11,573 nt of DNA, from the NCBI GenBank assembly GCA_964496595.1, contig CAZCAI010000145.1, positions 1 through 11,573 of the forward strand, in the 5' to 3' direction. How positions within the stretch are numbered: the first letter of the stretch is position 1; each line of letters starts with the position of its first letter. The notes under the pieces were generated by a model, which searched no databases, was not told the DNA's origin, and saw nothing but the letters and a program-made list of their open reading frames with translations. The stretch is from an uncultured Anaerolineales bacterium (lineage in GTDB: Bacteria > Chloroflexota > Anaerolineae > B4-G1 > SLSP01). Below, piece by piece: positions 74 to 9,975 of the stretch. Both the position numbers and the translations under genes were made by a program.

Positions 74-793
74 GTGCATCTATCGGTCGCGGTGAGCAAA
101 GTCAACAAATGGGCCGTGCGCAAGGGCGGCGATACTCTAGAGATGATCGAGCGGCCCGATGGCGGTCTCTCCCTGGTCTTGGCCGATGGTCAAAGCTCCG
201 GCCCCGGGGCCAAAGCCGTCAGCATCGTCGTGGTGCGCAAAGTGATCACCGAGCTGGCTGATGGCGTCCGCGACGGCGCGGCGGCGCGCGCGGCCAACGA
301 CTCGCTCTACGTGCGCTATCGAGGGCGCGTCTCCGCGACCTTAGTCATCCTCTCCGTCGATATGGCGAGCTACTCGCTGGTCATCACGCGCTTTGGCGAT
401 CCCCCCATCTACGTGCGATCGCTGGAGAATGGCGTGGGGGCGCTGCGTCGCCTGGCGGGCGCAGCGCCGGCGCTGGGCTTCCATCGCCACGTGCGCCCCG
501 CCGTGGATGAACTACCCTTGCATCCGGGCCTCGTGGCGTGCGCCTTCACCGACGGCCTGATCCATGCCGGCGCGCGCACCGGGCGCGAGATGGACATCCA
601 GGCCGCGATTGACGAGATCTGGATGGCGGAACCCTCGGCGCAGGCGCTGGCGGATCGTCTCCTCCAGCGCGCGCTGGCGTTAGATGATGGCCGTCCGACC
701 GATGACACCAGCATCGCCGTCTTGCAAATCGAAGAGGGCGAGGGCACCGGACCGCGTTACCTCACCGCCGAGATGCCCGTGCCGGACGTTTGA
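74..793 (+). CDS. PP2C-family (SpoIIE/RsbU-like) serine/threonine phosphatase, stand-alone catalytic domain.
   Basis: GTG start at 74, preceded by GGGAGG at 64-69. The translation has SpoIIE-family hallmarks: GGD..E...PDGGLSLVLADGQSSGPGAKAVS (metal-binding ADG.G.G motif), FTDGLIHA (the YTDG..E motif) and a C-terminal DDTSIAVLQI (the DD.T.. ending). GC3 is high. Confidence 0.75.
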   Translation: MHLSVAVSKVNKWAVRKGGDTLEMIERPDGGLSLVLADGQSSGPGAKAVSIVVVRKVITELADGVRDGAAARAANDSLYVRYRGRVSATLVILSVDMASYSLVITRFGDPPIYVRSLENGVGALRRLAGAAPALGFHRHVRPAVDELPLHPGLVACAFTDGLIHAGARTGREMDIQAAIDEIWMAEPSAQALADRLLQRALALDDGRPTDDTSIAVLQIEEGEGTGPRYLTAEMPVPDV

Positions 794-1182
794 CATTGTC
801 GAACGCATCCCGCTTGATCGGTATTGTGGGGCCGTGCTCCTCCGGCAAATCGACGACGGCGGAGGGTTTGCGGGAGGCTGGCTATCGCATCAAAGAAATT
901 CGCCAGGAGCACTGCGCGATGCCATCGATGTGGCAGCGGCTCACCCATCCCGATATTTTGATCTATTTAGATGTGTCGATGGCGGAGGCGGCGCGGCGCG
1001 AGGGGCTGGACAAGTCTTCTTCCTGGTGGATCGAGGAGCGCGAAGTGCGCCTGGCCCACGCCCGTCAACATTGTGATCTCTACATTGATACTACTCATTT
1101 ATCCCCCAAGGAGGTGCTGGATCGAATTTTGAGTTATCTGGAGGATAGGACTTTTCCATTCTTGCTCGAAGGGGATCGATAG
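790..1182 (+). CDS. Small (about 130 aa) P-loop NTPase, nucleotide/shikimate-kinase-like. Walker A motif GPCSSGKST.
   Basis: TTG start at 790-792 overlaps the TGA stop (791-793) of the phosphatase gene, which suggests translational coupling. Alternative in-frame starts are TTG 796 and TTG 814. The Walker A motif is IGIVGPCSSGKST, and the C-terminal LYIDTTHLSPKEVLDRILSYL resembles the tail of small nucleotide kinases. The exact start is uncertain. Confidence 0.6.
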   Translation: MTLSNASRLIGIVGPCSSGKSTTAEGLREAGYRIKEIRQEHCAMPSMWQRLTHPDILIYLDVSMAEAARREGLDKSSSWWIEEREVRLAHARQHCDLYIDTTHLSPKEVLDRILSYLEDRTFPFLLEGDR

Positions 1183-1242: not shown

Positions 1243-3498
1243 ATGGCTAAACAATCACAACCAATGCGGGATCAAGCGGATCAACAAATATCTCAGGGTC
1301 TGAATCAGCTCGAGGGCCGGGCGGCGCACACGATTGGGGAAGCGACGGCCACCTTAGAGATGTTGCGCACCAAGACGGATCGCGTCCGCGGGCTGATGGG
1401 GTTGTTCGGGTTTGGGCGGCGGATTTTGGTGCCGCCGGATGAAATTCACGTCGTCGTTGGCGACGGGCGGCATAGCCTGATCGCCTCTAAGCACAGTCAT
1501 GTCTTCGGTCAGACGGCGGATCGCGCGTCGATCTATTGGCTGAATCGGCTGACGCAGGTCATCAAGCTGAAGACCATCAGCTTTACCGTGCCCATTCGCG
1601 GCGCGGATGATGACGGCGTCCACGCCTTAGATAGCAGCAAGGTGAGCTTTAAGCTCTGGGCGCACGCCGTCGCCAAGCTGAACCCCGATAAAGCCGAAAT
1701 CGCCGCGCAGCGCGTCGGCTTGGACGCCACCAGCCTCATCAACACCATTACCGAGGTCGGCACGGCGGAGTTGGTCGCGGCCGGCGCGACGATGACCTTA
1801 GAGGAGATCATCGCCAACCACCAAAGGCTGGCCGAGATTGCCTTCCCGCAGGTCAACCAGATTCTCTCGGAACTGGGCTACGATCTGGCGCTGCTGACTA
1901 TCACCAAATTAGATGGCGTCGCCTATCGCAAGTTAGTCAATCAGGCCGAAGCTCGGATCTCCAAGGAGACCAGCATCGCCACCAACCGCGAGCAGGTCGC
2001 CGAGTTGCAGGATGACGAGGCGCGCCAGCGGCAGGAGGCCGAGATCAAGGCCGAGACGGAGAAGAAGTTAGCCGCCGAGCGGCTGGAGGCGGAGCGCGAG
2101 GTCGAGACCGCGACGCTCAATCAGCAGGAGAACTTGGCCGTCAAGCGGCACGAGGTGCAATTGCGCCACGTCTCGCGTGAGCAGGAGCAAGCGCGCGCGG
2201 GCCACGAAGTGGCGATGGAGAAGGTGGGGCTGGGGCGTCAGCAATCCGAGGCGGAGGTCGAGCGGGATGCTGAGTTGGAGCGCTTGAAGGCCGAGCGCCG
2301 GGCCGAGATCAATTTGGCCGAAACCGAGTCCGACGCGGATCGGTTGGCGCTAGAGCAGAAGCGTCAGATCGAGCGCGACGCGGAGCGGACGGAGGCGGAG
2401 GCCAGGCGCCTGCGCGAAGAAGAGTTGGCCGCCGCGCAGCGCGCCAAGGAGGTCGCGCTGGTGGAGGCGGAGCAGTTGGCCGAGTCGATGCGGATGGAGG
2501 CCGATGCCGAGACGAAAGCCGCGCTCGTCCGCGCCGAGGCAGAGACGAAGGCGGAGTTGATCCGCGCGGATGCGGAGGCGAACGCCACCGAGAAGCGCGC
2601 CAATGCGGCGAAGATCCGCGCCGAGGCGACGCGGGCCGAGACCGCCGCGCCGGGCCTGGCGGAGGCGGAGGTCGCAGCCGCGCGCGTCGAGGTCTCCGAG
2701 AAGCAGATCGCCGTCAACCGCGCCGAGGGTCTGGCCCAGGCCGAGGTCGCCAAGGCGCAGGCGGAAGCCGACGCCGACCGCGAGCGCCGGCTCAAAGAGG
2801 TCGAGATCGAGGCGCAGCGCCAACTGGTCGAACTCTATGACAAGGCGCCGGTCTTGGTAGAGATGGAGAAGCTCCGCATGCAGTACGAGCACGAGCGCGA
2901 ACTGACCCAAGTCCAGATGGAGACCTATCTCCAGGCATTCGAGGCGTTGGCGCCCAGCATGGAAGTGCGCATCTACGGCGGCGGGGATCAGACCACGCGC
3001 ATCATCACCGAGTTGATGCAACTCGCGCAGGGCGTGCGTTATCTGGGCGCGGAGGCGCCGGTGGTCGGGCGCATCTTAGAGGGCAAATCTGGGGTTCAAC
3101 AGCCGCTCTTCTCGCGGCTCTCTCATCTGGGGCCGTACTTCGAGGAGGCCGTGGCCGATATGAACCCGCGCATCTTCTCCAGCCTGCAGTTGGCCGACCT
3201 GATGGAGCGGCTGATGCCGGTCGTCGCCGGGCAGGAGGACATCGTCGCCGCGCTGAACCATCTCAAATCGGACGCGAGTTTCCGCGTGGTGGGCAACCTG
3301 CCCGTCGCGCCGCTCTTCCGCTTGTTGGGATTGGAGACGCCGCAATCTGGCCCCTCGGATATGATGATGGCCGGGGAAGAGGCGGCGAGCGAAGCCGAAG
3401 CAGAAGCCGAAGCAGAAGCCGAGGGCGAGGAAACAGCGGGTGAATCTGACATCGAGGCCTCGGAGGAAGCTGCCGGCCTCGATGCGCGGACGCCGTAA
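1243..3498 (+). CDS. Flotillin/SPFH (band 7) family protein of 751 aa. It has a very long Glu/Ala/Arg-rich coiled coil and an acidic EAEAEA tail, and no obvious N-terminal transmembrane hairpin.
   Basis: ATG at 1243 with GAGGAG at 1232-1237. The SPFH core is VPPDEIHVVVGDG...KLKTISFTVPIRGADDDGVHALDSSKVSFKLWAHAV...TMTLEEIIANHQRLAEIAFPQVNQILSELGYDLALLTITKLDG. It is followed by about 300 aa of EA/ER heptad-like repeats (the flotillin domain) and then the flotillin C-terminal-like MEVRIYGGGDQTTRIITELMQ. There is an extra tail of about 170 aa, including (GAAGCMGAAGCA)n at 3391-3423 encoding EAEAEAEAEAE. Confidence 0.8.
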   Translation: MAKQSQPMRDQADQQISQGLNQLEGRAAHTIGEATATLEMLRTKTDRVRGLMGLFGFGRRILVPPDEIHVVVGDGRHSLIASKHSHVFGQTADRASIYWLNRLTQVIKLKTISFTVPIRGADDDGVHALDSSKVSFKLWAHAVAKLNPDKAEIAAQRVGLDATSLINTITEVGTAELVAAGATMTLEEIIANHQRLAEIAFPQVNQILSELGYDLALLTITKLDGVAYRKLVNQAEARISKETSIATNREQVAELQDDEARQRQEAEIKAETEKKLAAERLEAEREVETATLNQQENLAVKRHEVQLRHVSREQEQARAGHEVAMEKVGLGRQQSEAEVERDAELERLKAERRAEINLAETESDADRLALEQKRQIERDAERTEAEARRLREEELAAAQRAKEVALVEAEQLAESMRMEADAETKAALVRAEAETKAELIRADAEANATEKRANAAKIRAEATRAETAAPGLAEAEVAAARVEVSEKQIAVNRAEGLAQAEVAKAQAEADADRERRLKEVEIEAQRQLVELYDKAPVLVEMEKLRMQYEHERELTQVQMETYLQAFEALAPSMEVRIYGGGDQTTRIITELMQLAQGVRYLGAEAPVVGRILEGKSGVQQPLFSRLSHLGPYFEEAVADMNPRIFSSLQLADLMERLMPVVAGQEDIVAALNHLKSDASFRVVGNLPVAPLFRLLGLETPQSGPSDMMMAGEEAASEAEAEAEAEAEGEETAGESDIEASEEAAGLDARTP
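3391..3423 (+). repeat. 12-nt tandem repeat gaagccgaagca x about 2.7, inside the flotillin 3' end. It encodes the EAEAEAEAEAE tail.
   Basis: Read directly. It is low-complexity coding sequence and prone to slippage. Confidence 0.8.
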
Positions 3499-3552
3499 GT
3501 TATTCTGAGGTATATCAGAACGAAGCGATTGGACGTAGATAGAGCAGATACA

Positions 3553-3577
3553 GGGCGCGCCACGGCGCGCCCTTTCT
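3553..3577 (+). terminator. Rho-independent terminator downstream of the flotillin gene.
   Basis: GGGCGCGC (3553-3560), loop CACG, GCGCGCCC (3565-3572), then TTTCT. It lies 55 nt after the TAA stop. A smaller hairpin TTCTGA-N6-TCAGAA sits at 3503-3520. Confidence 0.7.
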
Positions 3578-3584
3578 GCCCCCT

Positions 3585-3601
3585 GTTCGTAGTCAGGCAC
3601 G
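3585..3601. repeat. 17-bp direct repeat GTTCGTAGTCAGGCACG, copy 1 of 2, lying 31 nt upstream of the mobB start.
   Basis: It is identical to 4123-4139. Read directly. Confidence 0.9.
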
Positions 3602-3631
3602 CAATGGAATGGAGTGCCGTAGGAGGATTGG

Positions 3632-4150
3632 ATGTCCGATAATGAGATTCCCATCGTCGCCTTTGTGGGGCGCTCCGGCGCGGGGAAGACGACGCTGTTG
3701 GAGCGCGTGATCGCCGCCTTAGATGTGCGCGGCGTTCGCGTGGCCGTCGTCAAGCACACGCACCACACCGGCCTGGCGACCGATCTGCCCGGCACGGACT
3801 CGCGGCGGCTGTGGGAGGCCGGCGCGCAGCACACGACGCTCTGGGCGCCGGATCGCGTCGCGCACACGCATCGCACCGCGTCGCCGCCGACGCTGGCGAC
3901 GGTCTTGCGCGACATCCACGACGTCGATGTGATCCTGATCGAAGGGGATAAGCACGGCGCACTCCCCAAGATTGAGGTCGTGCGTGCGGCTGTTGATCTC
4001 GCGCTGCTGGATATCGAAGGGCGCATCGCGTGCGTCACGGACGCGCCAGACTTAGCGTGGGAGGGCCCGCGCTTCGGCTTCGATGACGCGGGCGTCGCGG
4101 CGCTGGCCGATTTTATCCACAAGTTCGTAGTCAGGCACGAAACGAAGTGA
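3632..4150 (+). CDS. mobB: MobB-like P-loop GTPase (molybdopterin-guanine dinucleotide biosynthesis protein B family).
   Basis: ATG at 3632 with AGGAGG at 3621-3626. IPIVAFVGRSGAGKTTLLERVIAAL...VAVVKHTHH...DVILIEGDKHGALPKIEV closely parallels E. coli MobB (AIAAWSGTGKTTLLKKLIPAL...GLIKHTHH...LILVEGFKHEEIAKIVL). Confidence 0.85.
   Translation: MSDNEIPIVAFVGRSGAGKTTLLERVIAALDVRGVRVAVVKHTHHTGLATDLPGTDSRRLWEAGAQHTTLWAPDRVAHTHRTASPPTLATVLRDIHDVDVILIEGDKHGALPKIEVVRAAVDLALLDIEGRIACVTDAPDLAWEGPRFGFDDAGVAALADFIHKFVVRHETK
4123..4139. repeat. 17-bp direct repeat GTTCGTAGTCAGGCACG, copy 2 of 2, inside the last codons of mobB (encoding KFVVRHE).
   Basis: It is identical to 3585-3601. Read directly. Confidence 0.9.
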
Positions 4151-4175
4151 TGCGCTATTTTAGATCGGAGGCGAC

Positions 4176-4580
4176 ATGGGCAAGTGGGAAGAAATAGATC
4201 ACACGGCGGATTTGGCGCTGCATCTCTGGGCGGATGACCTGGCCGCTCTCTTCATCACGGCGGCGCGGGGGATGTTCTCGCTGGTGGCGGCGCCGCAGGA
4301 GGAGGGGACATCGCGCGCGCTGGCGATTTCACTGACGGCGTTGGACGTCGAGACCTTGTTAGTCGATTGGTTGAACGAGCTACTCTATCTCTCCGAGACC
4401 GAATCGCTCGTCTTCACCGGCTATGAACTCTCACATCTCACGCCCACCGCCTTAGAGGCGACGGTCACCGGTAAACCCGTGGCGATGTATTATAATTATA
4501 TCAAGGCGGCGACCTTCCATAATCTCTCTGTGGATATGACGCCGGACGGCTATGAGACGGAGATTGTCTTTGATATATGA
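4176..4580 (+). CDS. Archease (RtcB activator/chaperone).
   Basis: ATG at 4176 with GGAGG at 4165-4169, 25 nt after the mobB stop. MGKWEEIDHTADLALHLWADDLAALF...LLVDWLNELLYLSE...ATFHNLSV...YETEIVFDI matches the archease signature (KWE..EHTAD at the N-terminus, LL..WL.ELLYL in the middle, VFDI at the C-terminus). Confidence 0.85.
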   Translation: MGKWEEIDHTADLALHLWADDLAALFITAARGMFSLVAAPQEEGTSRALAISLTALDVETLLVDWLNELLYLSETESLVFTGYELSHLTPTALEATVTGKPVAMYYNYIKAATFHNLSVDMTPDGYETEIVFDI

Positions 4581-4589
4581 GTTGGCATA

Positions 4590-4610
4590 GGTCGGGATGC
4601 CATCCCGACC
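4590..4610 (+). promoter_or_regulatory. Perfect 21-nt palindrome GGTCGGGATGcCATCCCGACC between archease and rtcB, with no following T-tract. Candidate operator or RNA stem-loop.
   Basis: Read directly. The arms are 10/10 complementary, centred on 4600, and the palindrome ends 14 nt upstream of the rtcB AGGAGG. Confidence 0.4.
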
Positions 4611-4635
4611 CAGGAGCTATTCAAAGGAGGGCGCG

Positions 4636-6087
4636 ATGGTACAAAAGAACCAGTTTAAGCAAATCGATGAGTACACGTGGGAGTTGCACAAGAACTATGA
4701 CAGCCGGATGCGGGCGCCGGTGCGCATTTACGGCAACCGCGAAATTTTCGATCAGGCCTTTGGGGATCACTCGATCCAGCAATTGATTAACGTCTCGATG
4801 TTGCCGGGGATTGTGAAGTACGCGATGGCGATGCCCGACATGCACCAGGGCTACGGCTTCCCGATTGGGGGCGTCGCGGCGTTCGATTATGACGAGGGGA
4901 TTATCTCGCCTGGCGGCGTTGGATATGATATCAACTGCGGCGTGCGCATGCTGGCCTCGAACATCGAGTTCGAGGAGATCAAGCCGCACTTGAACGACCT
5001 GACGACGATGCTCTACCAGAACTGCCCCAGCGGTCTGGGCGGCGATGGCGCGGTGCAAGTCTCGACGGCCGAGATGGACGAGTTGCTGGAGGATGGCTCG
5101 GAGTGGGCGCGCCATCAGGGCTACGCCACCCGCGATGATCGGGCCCGGACGGAGGGTGGGGGGCGGCTGCCCGGCGCTCGCGCCGACGCGGTACCCTATC
5201 GCGCCAGGCAGCGGGGATTGTCCCAGGTCGGATCGCTCGGCTCCGGCAACCACTTCCTGGAGATCGACGTGATCGACGCTGTCTACGACGAGGAGGTCGC
5301 GGCGGTCTTCGGCCTGACGGCGGGCCAGATTGTGGTGCAAATTCACTGCGGCTCGCGTGGGTTGGGCCACGAGGTCTGCTCGCAATACCTGCGTCGCTTG
5401 CAAGATGCCCCGCGCCGTTACGACATCCCCATCCCCGACCGTGAACTCGTCGCCGCGCCCATCGAATCTGAAGAGGGCCAGGCGTACTTCGCCGCGATGG
5501 CGGCGGCCGCGAACTACGCCTTCGTCAACCGGCAGGTGCTGGCCCACTTTGCGCGTCGCACCTTCGAGCAGGTGCTGGCCGGCAAGGTCAGCGATTGGCA
5601 TCTCCAGCAGGTCTACGATGTGACCCACAATATAGCCAAGATCGAGGAGCATCAGGTGGGATCGGTGCGAAAGAAGCTGATCGTTCACCGCAAGGGCGCG
5701 ACGCGTGCCTTCCCGCCCGGCCACCCGGAGCTTTCGGAGGTCTATCAGCCGACGGGGCAGCCGGTTCTCGTGCCCGGCTCGATGGGGACGGCCTCCTACG
5801 TGCTCGTGGGCACGCAGTCGGCGATGGAGCGCACCTTCGGATCGAGCTGTCACGGCGCCGGTCGAACGATGAGCCGGCGGCAGGCAAAGAAGAAGACGCG
5901 CGGGGAGCAGGTGCGTCAGGAGCTAAATCAGGAGGGGATCACGGTACGGGCCGGCAGCATGCGTGGCCTGGCGGAGGAGTCGCCCGTCGCCTACAAGGAT
6001 GTGGACGTGGTGGTGGATTCCGTCGTCGGCGCGGGGATCGCCCGCAAAGTCGCCCGCGTGCATCCCGTGGCGGTGATCAAGGGGTGA
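4636..6087 (+). CDS. rtcB: RNA-splicing ligase RtcB (3'-phosphate/5'-OH RNA ligase).
   Basis: I prefer ATG 4636 (AGGAGG at 4625-4630) over the longer 4597 start in the ORF track. Conserved RtcB blocks are present: MPDMHQGYGFPIGGV, GYDINCGVR (the Asp/Cys metal ligands), GSLGSGNHFLE, IHCGSRGLGHEV, NYAFVNRQ, THNIAKIEEH and SCHGAGRTMSR. Confidence 0.9.
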   Translation: MVQKNQFKQIDEYTWELHKNYDSRMRAPVRIYGNREIFDQAFGDHSIQQLINVSMLPGIVKYAMAMPDMHQGYGFPIGGVAAFDYDEGIISPGGVGYDINCGVRMLASNIEFEEIKPHLNDLTTMLYQNCPSGLGGDGAVQVSTAEMDELLEDGSEWARHQGYATRDDRARTEGGGRLPGARADAVPYRARQRGLSQVGSLGSGNHFLEIDVIDAVYDEEVAAVFGLTAGQIVVQIHCGSRGLGHEVCSQYLRRLQDAPRRYDIPIPDRELVAAPIESEEGQAYFAAMAAAANYAFVNRQVLAHFARRTFEQVLAGKVSDWHLQQVYDVTHNIAKIEEHQVGSVRKKLIVHRKGATRAFPPGHPELSEVYQPTGQPVLVPGSMGTASYVLVGTQSAMERTFGSSCHGAGRTMSRRQAKKKTRGEQVRQELNQEGITVRAGSMRGLAEESPVAYKDVDVVVDSVVGAGIARKVARVHPVAVIKG

Positions 6088-6191
6088 GCAGTTCGGTTTG
6101 TAGTTAGCCTCGAAGCGGAAGCGGAGTGGCGTTTTTCAGCGCTTCATTTCATTTGGCATTCCATTGCGCGGCGGATGCCTTGCTACGAAAA

Positions 6192-6251
6192 GGGGAATTG
6201 AGTGAAAGATTGCGGATGAATTTGGCTTGGGGGCGAGGACTAAGGCCTCTG
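6192..6251. repeat. Copy A of a repeated 46-60 nt element (GGGGAATTGAGTGAAAGAT...GGGGGCGAGGACTAAGGCCTCTG). It is the 5' part of a densely structured GC-rich non-coding block (6192-6370).
   Basis: Matches 11528-11573: GGGGAATTG(a/g)GTGAAAGAT, then an indel (A has an extra roughly 16 nt), then GGGGGCGAGGACTAA(a)GGCCTCTG. Downstream hairpins are CCTTCCTT-ctgc-AAGGAAGG (6271-6290), GGCGC-gtta-GCGCC and CGCGCC...GGCGCG. The strand of any transcript is unknown. Confidence 0.7.
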
Positions 6252-6372
6252 GCCAGGCCCTGTCGGCCAACCTTCCTTCTGCAAGGAAGGCTCCCGCGCC
6301 CGCGTAGGCGGTCGCCTGGCGCGTTAGCGCCTGTCTCAGGACTTCAGTCCAGGATAAACTACCAGGCTTAGT

Positions 6373-6414
6373 AAAAAAGCCAGGAGCCGAGGTTATTATG
6401 ACCTCGGCTCCTGG
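6373..6414 (-). terminator. Rho-independent terminator of the minus-strand slyD-csp operon. The hairpin could also act bidirectionally.
   Basis: Perfect 14-bp stem (6380-6393 with 6401-6414) and a 7-nt loop. A6 at 6373-6378 on the plus strand gives U6 right after the stem on the minus strand. It lies 18 nt after the csp stop. Confidence 0.8.
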
Positions 6415-6431
6415 TCTAAATCAGGGATTGC

Positions 6432-6728
6432 CTACACAAAATTGTCGAATGAGAAGCCGGATGGGTTGGGCTCCTGGGTGCTGTCTTCTTCTTCTTCTTC
6501 TTCCCTTTCGCCGCGCTCTTTGCTGACCACCTCGGTGGCCTTGGGGCCGCGATCGGTCATCTCGATTTTGAACTCGACCTTTTCCCCGTCGTGAAGGGTA
6601 CGGAATCCTGAGCCTGCGATGTTGGAATAATGCACGAAGACATCATCCTCGCCATCCTCCCGCTCAATAAAACCAAACCCCTTCTTCTCATCGAACCATT
6701 TGACTGTACCGTTTAGACTGTCTTCCAT
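6432..6728 (-). CDS. Cold-shock protein (CspA family, cold-shock domain) with an unusual acidic C-terminal extension of about 30 aa.
   Basis: [15 protein letters not shown] (RNP1-like), VFVHYSNI (RNP2-like) and [20 protein letters not shown] form a classic CSD. The tail [28 protein letters not shown] is encoded partly by (CTT)6 at 6485-6502. A GGAGG RBS precedes the ATG at 6728. Confidence 0.9.
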
Positions 6729-6751
6729 TGTGACTTAAACCTCCAAAAAGC

Positions 6752-7249
6752 TTAATGATGATGCTCGGTGTGTTCGCCATGGACGTGCCCGTGTTCGATT
6801 TCCTGCGGCGTCGCAGGGCGGATGTCCACAACCTCCACATCGAAATGTAGTGTTTCACCGGCCAGGGGGTGATTGTAGTCCACCAACACCCGGTCGTTTT
6901 CGACTTCCTTGATATGCAGCATAACCGTCCCGCCTTCGCTATCTTGCGCAGCCAAAATTTCCCCCGGCTCCAGGCGAACATCTGGCGGAAAGAGTTCTTT
7001 CGCGAGCCACTCTTGCGCTTCTTCGATGTACTCGCCATAAGCCTTTTCCGGCGGTACGACTACTTCCTTCGTATCTCCAACTTCCATAGAACTGAGAGCG
7101 TCTTCCAGCCCCTCGATAACCATTTGATGGCCATGAATGTACTGTAAAGGGTCTTTGCCCTCTGATGTATCAATGACCTCGCCATTACCTAGCCGAACGG
7201 TGTACTCAATGCTGATCACATTGTCCTCGCGGACTTTCAAGTCTGTCAT
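6752..7249 (-). CDS. slyD: SlyD-type FKBP peptidyl-prolyl cis-trans isomerase with IF (chaperone) domain and His-rich C-terminus (metallochaperone-like).
   Basis: YIHGHQMVIEGLEDAL..GDTKEVVVPPEKAYGEY...LHFDVEVVDIRPATPQEIEHGHVHGEHTEHHH parallels E. coli SlyD (YLHGHGSLISGLE...NLKFNVEVVAIREATEEELAHGHVHGAHDHHHD). AGGAGG precedes the ATG at 7249, and csp starts 23 nt after its stop. Confidence 0.9.
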   Translation of the reverse strand: MTDLKVREDNVISIEYTVRLGNGEVIDTSEGKDPLQYIHGHQMVIEGLEDALSSMEVGDTKEVVVPPEKAYGEYIEEAQEWLAKELFPPDVRLEPGEILAAQDSEGGTVMLHIKEVENDRVLVDYNHPLAGETLHFDVEVVDIRPATPQEIEHGHVHGEHTEHHH

Positions 7250-7268
7250 CTAACCTCCTGGGTTATAG

Positions 7269-7309
7269 AAAAAGCCGTTCAAGTTTAACCTTCCCTTAAA
7301 CGGCTTTTT
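7269..7309. terminator. Hairpin flanked by A5 and T5 (bidirectional-terminator-like). It lies between the aminotransferase 3' end and the slyD start, so any slyD transcript must traverse it.
   Basis: AGCCGTTcAAG (7273-7283) pairs with CTTaAACGGCT (7295-7305) with one mismatch and an 11-nt loop. AAAAA sits at 7269-7273 and TTTTT at 7305-7309. Confidence 0.55.
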
Positions 7310-7339
7310 CGTTTCAATGGGAACTACATTTACCCTTAC

Positions 7340-7367
7340 AGTATATTACAGGCCATGGGAATGTCAA
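7340..7367 (-). promoter_or_regulatory. Candidate sigma70-type promoter on the minus strand for slyD-csp. The -35 TTGACA is the reverse complement of 7362-7367, with a 16-nt spacer, and the -10 TATACT is the reverse complement of 7340-7345.
   Basis: Read directly. The -35 is a perfect consensus. The predicted TSS of about 7333 gives an 84-nt 5'UTR containing the 7273-7305 hairpin. Confidence 0.35.
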
Positions 7368-7412
7368 ATTGGGCAGGTATGAGAATTTTGCACTCGATGA
7401 TAATATAGTTGG

Positions 7413-8639
7413 CTATTTCGTGGCTAATTCCTCTTTTACGAGACCGCCGAGACGCTTGATGCCAATCTCAATCATCTCTGGCTTGGAGTTGCTGAAGTTG
7501 AGGCGCATGGCAGTGTGCCCGCCGTCGGCGTGGGGGAAGAAGTGGACGCCGGCCACATAGGCGACTTTATTCTCCACGGCTTTGGGGAAGAGCGCGGCGG
7601 TATCGATGGGTTCCGGCACCCGCGCCCAGAGGAATAACCCGCCCTGCGGACGAGTCCAACTGCTGCCCTCCGGCCAACTGGCTTCCAACGCCCTGAGCAT
7701 TGTATTGCGACGTTCCCGGTAGACATTGCAGATGCTCCGCACGTGGGCCTTGAGGATACCGCGCTGGGCGATATCGTTGGCGATCATCTGATCGAAGGTG
7801 CTGGTGTGCAGGTCGGCGCCCTGCTTGGCGCGGACGAGGCGCTGGACGATTTCCATCGGCCCCATGATCCACCCGATGCGCAGACCCGGGGTCAAGGTTT
7901 TGGAGAAAGTACCCAAATAGAGCGTGCGCTCCGGCGCCATCACCGAGATGGGGGTGATGTCCTCGCCTTCGTAGCGCAGCGCGCCGTAGGGATCATCCTC
8001 GACGATGATGAGATCGTACTTGCGGGCAAGCTCCACCAGATGCTTGCGACGATCCTCCGGCAGGGTGGTGCCGGCTGGATTGTGGAAGTTGGGAAGCACG
8101 TAGATGAAGCACGGCTTTTTCTCCTTGATCGTCTCTTCCAGTTGATCCACACACATGCCATGATCATCCAACGGCACGGTGGCGAATTGGGCCTCATAGG
8201 CGCGCCACGCCTGAATCGCGCCCAAGTAGGTGGGTTGAGCCGTCAGGATGGTGGTGCCCGGATCGATGAAGACCTTGCCAATCAGATCTAACGCCTGTTG
8301 GGAGCCGGTGGTGATGAGAATGTTATCCGGCCCATGCTGGATGCCATATTTGGCGACCGTCGCGGCCAGAAATTCGCGCAGCGGCGGATGGCCCTCGGTG
8401 GTGCTATATTGAAGCGCTTGCTTTGGCTCCTTGTGGAGCAGGTAGTTACACGCTTCCTCGATTTCGCGCACGGGGAACAGCTCCGGCGCCGGCAGCCCCC
8501 CGGCGAACGAGATGACCTCCGGCTGTTGGGTGACCTTGAGCAGCTCCCGGATGGCGGAGCTTCCCATTTTTCGGGCGCGCTGTGAGAGAAAGCGTTCCCA
8601 ATCGACTGGTCCGGTCGGTGAATTAGCGTATACCGTCAT
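7413..8639 (-). CDS. PLP-dependent class I aminotransferase (2-aminoadipate/aromatic/kynurenine aminotransferase family, LysN/ArAT-like).
   Basis: ATG at 8639 with GGAGG. SAIRELLK...ISFAGGLP near the N-terminus and GTFSKTLTPGLRIGWIMGP (PLP-lysine SK motif) are typical of this family. GC3 is high. Confidence 0.85.
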   Translation of the reverse strand: MTVYANSPTGPVDWERFLSQRARKMGSSAIRELLKVTQQPEVISFAGGLPAPELFPVREIEEACNYLLHKEPKQALQYSTTEGHPPLREFLAATVAKYGIQHGPDNILITTGSQQALDLIGKVFIDPGTTILTAQPTYLGAIQAWRAYEAQFATVPLDDHGMCVDQLEETIKEKKPCFIYVLPNFHNPAGTTLPEDRRKHLVELARKYDLIIVEDDPYGALRYEGEDITPISVMAPERTLYLGTFSKTLTPGLRIGWIMGPMEIVQRLVRAKQGADLHTSTFDQMIANDIAQRGILKAHVRSICNVYRERRNTMLRALEASWPEGSSWTRPQGGLFLWARVPEPIDTAALFPKAVENKVAYVAGVHFFPHADGGHTAMRLNFSNSKPEMIEIGIKRLGGLVKEELATK

Positions 8640-8916
8640 ACTTACCTCCTAAATACGGTTGGATATTATTGGATATGGGTACTGTTCAAAAAAATAACAC
8701 CTGCCAGATCTAGCCAGGCAGGTGTGGGGTCTGATACGAATCGCCGCGTCATAACGGCCAACGTCAGGCTAAATATGGCAATCATGTTGGTTAGGCCAAG
8801 AACAGATTGCATACGTGAATTTTTCTCCCCTCGAAAGTCAGAAAGGCAATGAACTGTGATATCGTGTGTGTCACGGCGTGAGGAACACAGCTGTTTTTCC
8901 ATCATGCTTCAGTTGT
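8640..8916 (-). promoter_or_regulatory. Long (about 275 nt) AT-rich 5' leader of the aminotransferase gene, ending in an intrinsic terminator. Candidate riboswitch/attenuator of unassigned class.
   Basis: It is bounded by the promoter at 8923-8951 and the start codon at 8639. It is about 48% GC against about 65% for the flanks. It contains an imperfect dyad GGAAcACAG|CTGTtTTTCC (8882-8900) at +16 to +34 of the transcript, and the terminator at 8688-8725. Confidence 0.45.
8688..8725 (-). terminator. Intrinsic-terminator-like hairpin plus U-tract located 48 nt upstream of the aminotransferase ATG (attenuator position).
   Basis: On the minus strand: ACACCTGCC, an 11-nt loop, GGCAGGTGT, then UAUUUUUUUG. 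On the plus strand the stem is 8697-8705 with 8717-8725 and A7 is at 8688-8694. Confidence 0.6.
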
Positions 8917-8922
8917 ACCTCA

Positions 8923-8951
8923 ATTGTAGAGGAGGGTGATCTACCCGTCAA
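8923..8951 (-). promoter_or_regulatory. Near-consensus sigma70-type promoter on the minus strand. The -35 TTGACG is the reverse complement of 8946-8951, with a 17-nt spacer, and the -10 TACAAT is the reverse complement of 8923-8928.
   Basis: Read directly. The predicted TSS is near 8916, and the promoter drives the leader plus aminotransferase. Confidence 0.5.
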
Positions 8952-9058
8952 CTGCCATTTGACGAAAAATGATGTGAGGAAGGGCAAAGGTGGGGGGATG
9001 CCCGATGCGAAGTACATGCTTGAAGCGTGACGCGCGCCTCTCCCCCTGGGCCATATAC

Positions 9059-9086
9059 TTGCTTGCCCCTTCCTCTGTGTTAGAAT
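9059..9086 (+). promoter_or_regulatory. Candidate promoter for the GT2 gene: -35 TTGCTT (9059-9064), 16-nt spacer, -10 TAGAAT (9081-9086). The -10 overlaps ATG 9085, so the transcript may be leaderless and start at ATG 9094.
   Basis: Read directly. There is no SD before either ATG, and ATG 9094 lies 7 nt after the -10. Confidence 0.35.
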
Positions 9087-9975
9087 GGCCTTAATGGACT
9101 TAGGCATCGTCATTGTGAACTATAATACGCGCCAACTCCTGCGCCGCTGCTTGGAAACCGTCTTCGCTACTCGGGGTGCGACCTTTCGCGTCTGTGTGGT
9201 GGATAATAACTCCCAGGATGGCAGCGCGGAGATGGTCGCCGAGACATTCCCCCAGGTGACGTTGATCCGCAATCGGCAGAACGTCGGGTATCCGGCGGCC
9301 AACAACCAGGGATTGCGGCGCCTGGAATTTACGGAGGGATCGTGGGCGGATGCGCCGGAATTCGGCCTGCTGCTCAACCCCGATACCGAAGTCCCGCCGG
9401 ACGCCTTCGCGCGGATGTTGGCGTTCGCCGAGGCGCACCCGCGCGCCGGCGTCATCGGCCCGAAGCTGGTGCGCCCCTCCGGCGATCTGGACCTGGCCTG
9501 CCGCCGCACCTTCCCCTCGCCCGAAGTCTCCTTCTATCGCATCACCGGACTCTCTAAGCTCTTCCCGCGCCATCGTCGCTTTGGGCAGTACAACCTCACC
9601 TTCCTGGACCCCGATCAAATGGCCGAGGTCGATGCCGTGGTCGGCGCCTTTATGCTCGTGCGCCGCGATGCGATGCGCGAGGTGGGCCTGCTAGATGATT
9701 CGTTCTTTATGTACGGCGAGGATCTGGACTGGGCCTACCGCATCAAGGCCGCCGGCTGGAACGTCTACTACAACCCGGAGGTCACCGTGCTGCACGTCAA
9801 GCGCGCGGCCAGCCGCCAGAACCCCAAATCCCGCGTCGAGTTCTGGCGCGCGATGGAGATCTTCTACCGCAAACACTATGCCGCGCAGACGCCGCGCTGG
9901 CTCCACTACGTGATCCTCTTTGCCGTGCGGGCGCAGACCCGCTGGATGGCCCTCCGGGTCAAGGCGGGGCTGTGA
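9085..9975 (+). CDS. Family 2 glycosyltransferase (rhamnosyltransferase/WbbL-like GT-A fold).
   Basis: GIVIVNYNTRQLLRRCL...VCVVDNNSQDGS...NRQNVGYPAANNQG...LLNPDTEV (the D-x-D region) and FFMYGEDLDWAYR are typical GT2 blocks. The alternative start is ATG 9094. Confidence 0.85.
   Translation: MALMDLGIVIVNYNTRQLLRRCLETVFATRGATFRVCVVDNNSQDGSAEMVAETFPQVTLIRNRQNVGYPAANNQGLRRLEFTEGSWADAPEFGLLLNPDTEVPPDAFARMLAFAEAHPRAGVIGPKLVRPSGDLDLACRRTFPSPEVSFYRITGLSKLFPRHRRFGQYNLTFLDPDQMAEVDAVVGAFMLVRRDAMREVGLLDDSFFMYGEDLDWAYRIKAAGWNVYYNPEVTVLHVKRAASRQNPKSRVEFWRAMEIFYRKHYAAQTPRWLHYVILFAVRAQTRWMALRVKAGL

Follow-up and report, generated by a model that had tools for sequence, protein, structure and literature searches.

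A MobB-family GTP-binding protein linked to archease and the RNA ligase RtcB in one lineage of Anaerolineae

The window described here is a whole contig of 11,573 nt from an uncultured Anaerolineales bacterium (GenBank assembly GCA_964496595.1, contig CAZCAI010000145.1) that carries, in close succession, genes for a P-loop GTP-binding protein of the MobB family, for archease, and for the RNA ligase RtcB (Table 1). Open reading frames (ORFs) were assigned by Pfam and NCBIfam profile matches and by comparison with PDB sequences. The longest ORF of rtcB begins at position 4597; because homologs are 483 aa long and an AGGAGG motif precedes the ATG at 4636, we place the start codon at the latter site. 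With this start, mobB and archease are separated by 25 nt (4151-4175) and archease and rtcB by 55 nt (4581-4635) on the same strand, just as an earlier note on this DNA had stated. Its assignment of a ribosome-binding site (RBS) to each gene holds as well (GGAGGA at 3622-3627 for mobB, GGAGG at 4167-4171 for archease, and AGGAGG at 4625-4630 for rtcB), and a terminator scan agrees with it that no terminator-like site lies inside the unit (3632-6087).

The upstream boundary of this unit is less sharp. The earlier note had placed a terminator just ahead of mobB, and a genuine hairpin is indeed present there, but its T tail is short, and the element is weak and fails the terminator scan because of this short T run. 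Furthermore, a promoter scan found no sigma-70-like promoter in 3300-6500, including the stretch between hairpin and mobB. Given the weak hairpin and the missing promoter, separate transcription of just mobB-archease-rtcB is not established. An Rfam search of the window returned no RNA families.

Table 1. Features of the window by position, followed by MobB proteins encoded at related loci
Locus	Feature	Position	Strand	Evidence or remark
Window	SpoIIE/PP2C-type phosphatase gene	74..793	+	PF07228 E 8e-24
Window	Small P-loop protein gene (nucleoside monophosphate (NMP) kinase / RapZ-N-like)	790..1182	+	Weak AAA_18/CPT/RapZ_N matches
Window	Gene of 751-aa coiled-coil protein, between small P-loop gene and mobB	1243..3498	+	No family match
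Window	GC-rich hairpin, 9 bp (stem region 3553-3572), tail TTTCT	3553..3577	+	Fold; weak/partial terminator
Window	Dispersed repeat copy 1 (GTTCGTAGTCAGGCACG + small hairpin), just 5' of mobB RBS	3585..3618	+	
Window	mobB-family P-loop GTP-binding protein gene, archease-linked clade	3632..4150	+	172 aa; PF03205/TIGR00176, 1NP6
Window	Dispersed repeat copy 2, encodes last 8 MobB residues	4123..4149	+	
Window	Archease gene	4176..4580	+	134 aa; PF01951 E 1e-32; matches P. horikoshii 4N2P
Window	rtcB gene, archaeal/eukaryal archease-dependent type	4636..6087	+	483 aa; PF01139 E 3e-170
Window	Dispersed repeat, weak third copy (67% identity, family D1), just past rtcB stop	6096..6122	+	
Window	Weak terminator-like hairpin 3' of rtcB	6128..6143	+	Terminator scan; first + strand site from 3632 onward
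L001	MobB protein P0002			89% identical to window MobB
L002	MobB protein P0008			62% identical to window MobB
L003	MobB protein P0012			62% identical to window MobB
L007	MobB protein P0039			60% identical to window MobB
L008	MobB protein P0074			52% identical to window MobB
L045	MobB protein P0084			51% identical to window MobB
L046	MobB protein P0093			46% identical to window MobB
L053	MobB protein P0096			44% identical to window MobB

The first protein of the unit is a clear member of the MobB family. It scores 115.4 bits with PF03205 (cut-off 26.6) and 105.4 bits with the equivalog model TIGR00176 (cut-off 76.2), shows similarity along its entire length to E. coli MobB (1NP6, E 7e-19, residues 5-164), and matches five more MobB entries in the PDB. 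The family motifs are kept, including the Walker A motif GRSGAGKTT, KHTHH, DLPGTDS (with D56), EGDK, and PKIEVVR, which are alignment columns common to the clade discussed below and its outgroup, and GTP binding is predicted for the clade. An assignment to the G3E metallochaperone GTPases (CobW/HypB/UreG/MeaB) was considered and rejected, as the cobW profile reaches 22 bits, MeaB and HypB stay under their cut-offs, all similarity is confined to the P-loop region, and the sequence contains only one Cys and lacks a CxCC motif. The PADLOC models of defense systems match MobB only at the generic P-loop level and leave the remaining five proteins of the cluster unmatched. Archease and RtcB appear equally complete: the archease motifs HTAD and KAATFH are conserved, with H9, D12, K110, T113, and D133 invariant in the alignments, while RtcB aligns with P. 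horikoshii RtcB (1UC2, E 4e-179) with the equivalents of Cys98, Asn202/His203, His234, His329, and His404 conserved and contains the motifs DINCGVR, GSGNHFLE, and GSSCHGAGR.

The linkage of the three genes is not unique to the window genome. Homologs of the window MobB were collected together with their contigs, of which about 20 kb was seen per locus, and the same gene order MobB-archease-RtcB is present at 13 further distinct loci (L001, L002, L003, L007/L056, L008, L045, L046, L053, L055, L057, L058, L062, and L059) whose MobB proteins share 44-89% identity with that of the window. The eight loci from L001 to L053 were reached through the MobB homologs, whereas L055, L057, L058, L062, and L059 come from the metagenome scan with archease described below. 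Metagenome-assembled genomes with the cluster include GCA_963992645.1, GCA_054028515.1, GCA_049975025.1, GCA_900175155.1, and GCA_053989235.1. The junctions of mobB and archease in these relatives measure -23 to +41 nt, are mostly close to zero or overlapping, and several consist of overlapping stop and start codons so that, judged from these junctions, the two genes are often translationally coupled. At L059, a 2.1-kb insertion with a DNA methyltransferase gene and an unknown ORF (3935-5670) separates mobB from archease. By contrast, the flanks of the unit vary. Most loci have YajC-PP2C-small P-loop genes upstream, at L007/L056, L046, and L053 the PP2C and small P-loop genes are replaced by the S-component of an energy-coupling factor (ECF) transporter, and the downstream genes differ too. 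The MobB-archease-RtcB arrangement is therefore retained down to about 45% MobB identity despite differing flanks. The ECF S-component genes abut mobB (L007 9444-10001, L046 7439-7996, L053 3020-3577, and L056 4954-5508), and their products match PF12822 with weak similarity to ThiT and FolT. An orphan ORF of 201 aa lies between archease and rtcB at L008 (10910-11515).

In a neighbor-joining tree of 143 MobB sequences, the archease-linked proteins are monophyletic and fall into one clade of 94 sequences apart from the MobBs that are linked to genes of the molybdenum cofactor (Moco). Members of this clade share about 34-46% identity with the canonical MobBs in the sample and are distinguished by W61 (absent from the outgroup), T79, R81, D122, P123, R131, T136, and L141. 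The clade also includes some variants, namely P0056 with an N-terminal RelB-like antitoxin domain and P0060 and P0061, in which the EGxK motif is followed by an insert of about 35 residues.

The genomic context of the clade differs from that of other MobBs. As claimed in the earlier note, the 11.6-kb contig is free of other Moco genes in both profile searches and tblastn searches with E. coli MobA, MoaA-D, and MoeA/B and with Chloroflexi-like MoeA and MobA. The same tblastn queries, applied to the loci from the MobB look-up and not to the metagenome loci L055-L062, find no Moco genes within 8-10 kb (where flank is available) of L001-L003, L007, L008, L045, L046, and L053. As controls, we scanned genomes with a MobB alignment and considered 35 loci among the matches listed, which represent many phyla at 29-46% identity and do not include the clade itself. 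None of these 35 has archease or RtcB inside 10 kb, and about 17 have MobA, MoeA, or Moa genes nearby. Linkage to archease or RtcB is likewise missing for three individually examined proteins outside the clade, namely P0100 (46% identity) in a MobB-MoeA-MobB-MobA locus, P0119 (45%) between NUDIX and RecO genes, and the sister of the clade, P0113, which stands alone. An "Anaerolineaceae" MobB in L010 also falls outside the linked clade and is followed by a MobA fragment; in this region (204-1015), the canonical MobB runs into about the first 34 residues of a MobA-like domain, the remainder of which is broken by an opposite-strand SNF2/PLD helicase gene. At L080, a non-clade archease-rtcB pair (archease at 5953-6396) has a canonical-type MobB fragment (2-298; 60% identical to the Moco-linked MobB of L047) 5.7 kb upstream, with unrelated genes in between.

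In part of the lineage, MobB and archease are encoded as one protein. A search for archease in a representative sequence library gave 5,746 matches. We examined the best 150, which include the MobB::archease fusions P0125 (323 aa) and P0134 (306 aa). Searching with P0134 revealed 14 distinct clusters (at 90% identity) that carry both PF03205 and PF01951 and share 49-67% mutual identity. They form a group A with a linker of about 7 residues, whose members are 61-67% identical to P0134, and a group B whose linker, at about 25 residues, retains the MG(R)W start of archease. These two linker types suggest two independent stop-codon losses, and going by the gene sequences, MobB and archease are a single polypeptide in two sub-lineages. 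In all fusions, the MobB part retains Walker A, KHT, and EGxK, and the archease part HTAD and KAATFH. Such fusions are seen in numerous independent assemblies, and fusion proteins on record include HRT32352.1, MBP8862666.1, and HOC20868.1. The P0134 cluster has 44 members from NCBI, JGI, ENA, and Logan assemblies, with one member sequence occurring on up to 36 contigs, and its members are annotated merely as Anaerolineae MobB. An AlphaFold2 (AF2) model of the fusion (pLDDT 90, pTM 0.77) has no disordered linker, which is compatible with, though not proof of, a fixed arrangement of the two domains.

We tentatively favor the interpretation that a paralogous MobB clade has joined the RNA-ligase operon of archease and RtcB in one Anaerolineae lineage and is functionally integrated there, and the observations above suggest, short of proof, that this MobB is a new nucleotide-handling partner of RtcB. 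Several findings weigh against such recruitment and speak instead for an ordinary Moco MobB that came to lie beside archease-rtcB by lineage-specific rearrangement, in which case the adjacency would be vertically inherited, the fusions would be neutral stop-codon losses, and the protein would work with MobA and MoeA encoded elsewhere. First, with all canonical motifs kept and the TIGR00176 equivalog threshold passed, clade MobB could still serve the synthesis of molybdopterin guanine dinucleotide (MGD). Second, the MobB-linked archeases form one clade in an archease tree, with RibF-linked ones as nearest neighbors, and the linkage therefore arose once, so that by this tree it has a single origin in Anaerolineae and the loci are not independent events. 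Third, unrelated neighbors are syntenic across relatives too (a cold-shock protein, an opposite-strand aminotransferase, GT2, and a WcaJ-like transferase), and part of the conservation is therefore inherited synteny. Fourth, L052, which represents a deep branch of the clade (P0080, 52% identity), keeps PP2C-small P-loop-MobB, but neither archease nor rtcB lies within 8 kb of the clade MobB. In addition, mobB often lies away from Moco genes, as about half of the 35 controls show none within 10 kb.

The last of these counterarguments comes from the archease side. A metagenome scan with a narrow archease alignment yielded 80 loci at 39-63% identity, a range that distant phyla and archaea lie beyond. 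In this sample, almost every archease gene is followed by rtcB, and mobB is directly upstream of archease in five loci (L055, L056, L057, L058, and L062; six with L059). In ten loci, however, the gene directly upstream of archease, or fused to it, is ribF, while the others have assorted neighbors. Fusions of RibF and archease of about 450-477 aa form at least 10 clusters in sister lineages, and because these exist, a fusion alone is weak evidence of a functional link. In L108 and L111, ribF is the housekeeping gene that ends the series nusA-infB-(nrnA)-truB-ribF and is followed by archease-rtcB. To judge from such genes, archease fuses readily with whatever gene is upstream for no obvious functional reason. 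Loci and proteins of the RibF type comprise L060, L061, L072, L075, L096, L098, L105, L108, L111, and L117 as well as P0139, P0184, P0266, P0220, and P0325-P0335; at L111, genes for an AccI-like endonuclease and an N6-methylase are found between archease and rtcB (6418-9548).

Nevertheless, we regard the displaced ordinary MobB as a somewhat unlikely explanation. A separate, Moco-linked MobB type lies near the clade in the tree (L047 with MobB-MoeA-MobB-MobA, and L010), which suggests paralogy over one relocated gene. Moreover, the mobB-archease junction has stayed tight or overlapping though both flanks were rearranged several times, and the fusions have been maintained, and both domains conserved, at mutual identities of 49-67%. 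The comparison with RibF points the same way, since clade MobB is removed from the setting of its own pathway and constitutes a separate clade, a difference from the RibF case that these sequences make suggestive and not decisive.

Another way to account for the locus is that the true partners of MobB are encoded upstream. The window has three genes ahead of the unit that encode a PP2C-type phosphatase, a small P-loop protein, and a coiled-coil protein (Table 1). The PP2C gene is also found upstream of mobB in L001, L002, L003, L008, L045, L052, L057, L058, and L059, and in L001, L002, L003, L008, and L052 the small P-loop gene abuts mobB, either overlapping it or set off from it by 1-4 nt. 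The small P-loop family (around 125 aa) consists of about 209 clusters of 55-93% identity, all from Anaerolineae/Chloroflexota; an AF2 model (pLDDT 82.6) has the RapZ N-domain and shikimate or NMP kinases as closest folds (TM 0.6-0.68). The NCBI gene call for this protein on the window contig (P0346, 87 aa) appears too short. While the small P-loop gene and mobB abut in relatives, they are separated in the window by the coiled-coil gene and the hairpin. The coiled-coil protein is rich in E/A repeats, spans 715-751 aa across the window and relatives, and has no matches in Pfam, NCBIfam, PDB sequences, or PADLOC. We rejected the idea that its gene is a one-off insertion, as homologs recur at the same place in L055, L057 (3329-5482), and L059 (1236-3383), where their stop overlaps the mobB start; the gene is absent from L001-L003, L008, and L045. 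The earlier note's proposal of a three-gene operon stands insofar as mobB, archease, and rtcB form a tight same-strand unit, yet the unit is not strictly one of three genes because upstream genes abut mobB in most relatives. From this gene arrangement, the transcription unit may instead be PP2C-small P-loop-(coiled-coil)-MobB-archease-RtcB.

It is conceivable that MobB acts with the small NMP-kinase-like P-loop protein and PP2C in a nucleotide, cofactor, or signaling module, with archease-rtcB merely on the same transcript. Besides the abutting genes, this idea draws on the fusion of small P-loop protein and MobB into 296-aa proteins (P0025, P0294, P0296, and others) in several assemblies, on L052 where PP2C-small P-loop-MobB is retained without archease and rtcB, and on the small P-loop family being as lineage-restricted as the MobB clade. 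However, L007/L056, L046, and L053 keep MobB-archease-RtcB with the ECF S-component instead of these genes, and the MobB::archease fusions with their 14 clusters outnumber those of the small P-loop protein with MobB. We consider this explanation quite unlikely as an account on its own, and it and a role of MobB in archease-RtcB function do not exclude each other. Finally, archease could be a general helper of NMP transfer whose linkages reflect the nucleotidylation of dinucleotide cofactors and not RNA ligation, given that both recurrent partners, RibF (10 of the 80 loci, for flavin adenine dinucleotide) and MobB (5, or 6 with L059, via MobA for MGD), come from pathways in which a cofactor receives AMP or GMP and pyrophosphate (PPi) is released, but this seems very improbable because ribF sits in an ordinary nusA-infB-truB-ribF operon that makes chance adjacency simpler, because RtcB follows archease nearly everywhere, and because the literature searched offers no support for it and no mention of archease together with riboflavin kinase.

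The sequence around mobB also contains copies of a dispersed, REP-like repeat in which GTTYGTAGTCAGGCRCG is followed by a short hairpin. Related copies are present at L001 (2825-2841 and 10492-10508), and in both the window and L001 a copy supplies the final 8 codons of mobB. The occurrence of the 17-mer is far above chance, as no shuffled sequence had two or more matches. We considered whether this 17-nt repeat flanking mobB is an insertion scar or operator and rejected an operon-specific reading, since a copy in L001 follows an unrelated gene.

If the MobB clade has indeed been recruited to archease and RtcB, its biochemical role could be sought in nucleotide handling. RtcB is activated by GTP-dependent guanylylation of a histidine (PMC3973293, PMC4604427, PMC10944509). 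Archease enters the active site of RtcB/RTCB, where it coordinates GTP and metal (PMC10944509), and enables multiple turnover (PMC3973293, PMC4604427, PMC10944509). In the human complex, the NTPase DDX1 promotes the guanylylation of RTCB that depends on archease (PMC10944509), and MobB is known as a GTP-binding accessory protein beside the guanylyltransferase MobA, with a role that varies by organism (PMC13197769). By analogy to these two cases, the adaptor role of MobB beside MobA and the boost that DDX1 gives to archease-dependent guanylylation, clade MobB might bind GTP and act via archease at the guanylylation step (RtcB-His + GTP -> RtcB-His-GMP + PPi). Presenting or gating the nucleotide is one possible task, GTP hydrolysis that cycles archease on and off RtcB another, and this assembly for nucleotide handling may also include the small NMP-kinase-like protein, which some relatives have as a fusion with MobB. 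Such a specific GTP-loading mechanism is doubtful in our estimation. It also seems unlikely, if worth stating, that MobB is a dedicated third subunit of a bacterial RtcB holoenzyme, i.e., a GTP-loading or gating factor that would dock via archease as a counterpart of DDX1, perhaps with the small NMP-kinase-like protein as a module for the hand-off of guanine nucleotides.

MobB has long been regarded as an enigmatic and often dispensable GTP-binding protein, and the re-guanylylation and regulation of bacterial RtcB are poorly understood. The MobB::archease fusion and the conserved mobB-archease-rtcB unit offer a concrete hypothesis for both the role of MobB and the re-guanylylation of RtcB. As a practical consequence, roughly 100 database entries labeled "molybdopterin-guanine dinucleotide biosynthesis protein B" may carry the wrong function. 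Should MobB prove to be a third subunit of RtcB, the family as a whole might serve to present GTP wherever an enzyme forms a GMP adduct, as MobA and RtcB do. If the linkage is instead neutral, the locus would be a warning case of how Rosetta-stone logic can mislead, as archease is also fused with the housekeeping protein RibF.

The archease-rtcB operon as such is already known. The window shares with the described archease-RtcB "tRNA splicing" operons (Desai et al. 2014, PMC3973293; Desai et al. 2015, PMC4604427) the position of archease directly upstream on the same strand, an archaeal-type RtcB, and all catalytic and metal-tip motifs. In those operons, however, the occasional third gene is only a tRNA 5-methylcytosine (m5C) methyltransferase, whereas here the additional member is an upstream MobB-family gene that is coupled and sometimes fused. 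The earlier note had called an accessory GTP-handling role of MobB in this module undescribed, and we found no connection of MobB to archease or RtcB in the literature searched; the MobB member and the MobB::archease fusions, both absent from that literature, are so far confined to one uncultured lineage. The E. coli rtcBA/RtcR RNA-repair operon has the RtcB ligase in common with our locus, but the window and the relatives examined are without the RtcA cyclase and without the sigma-54 activator RtcR, and their RtcB is of the 483-aa archaeal type with archease.

With E. coli MobB (1NP6/1P9N), a GTP-binding adaptor of MGD synthesis, clade MobB shares homology over the full length and all motifs, but in the loci examined the clade is never beside mobA, moeA, or moa genes, and it is fused to archease or the small kinase-like protein instead of MobA, MoeA, or MoaC. 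DDX1, which belongs to the tRNA ligase complex of metazoans, would be a functional analog of MobB in the proposed mechanism, though of unrelated fold, a DEAD-box helicase as opposed to a SIMIBI-type P-loop protein. The closest precedent for MobB specializing on one partner comes from Methylorubrum extorquens, where MobB serves as a scaffold for MoeA1 in the context of the tungsten cofactor (Wco), as indicated also by synteny and fusion proteins (PMC13197769). The partner in this MoeA1-MobB platform is an enzyme of Moco/Wco biosynthesis, whereas the candidate partner of the Anaerolineae clade is the activator of an RNA ligase.

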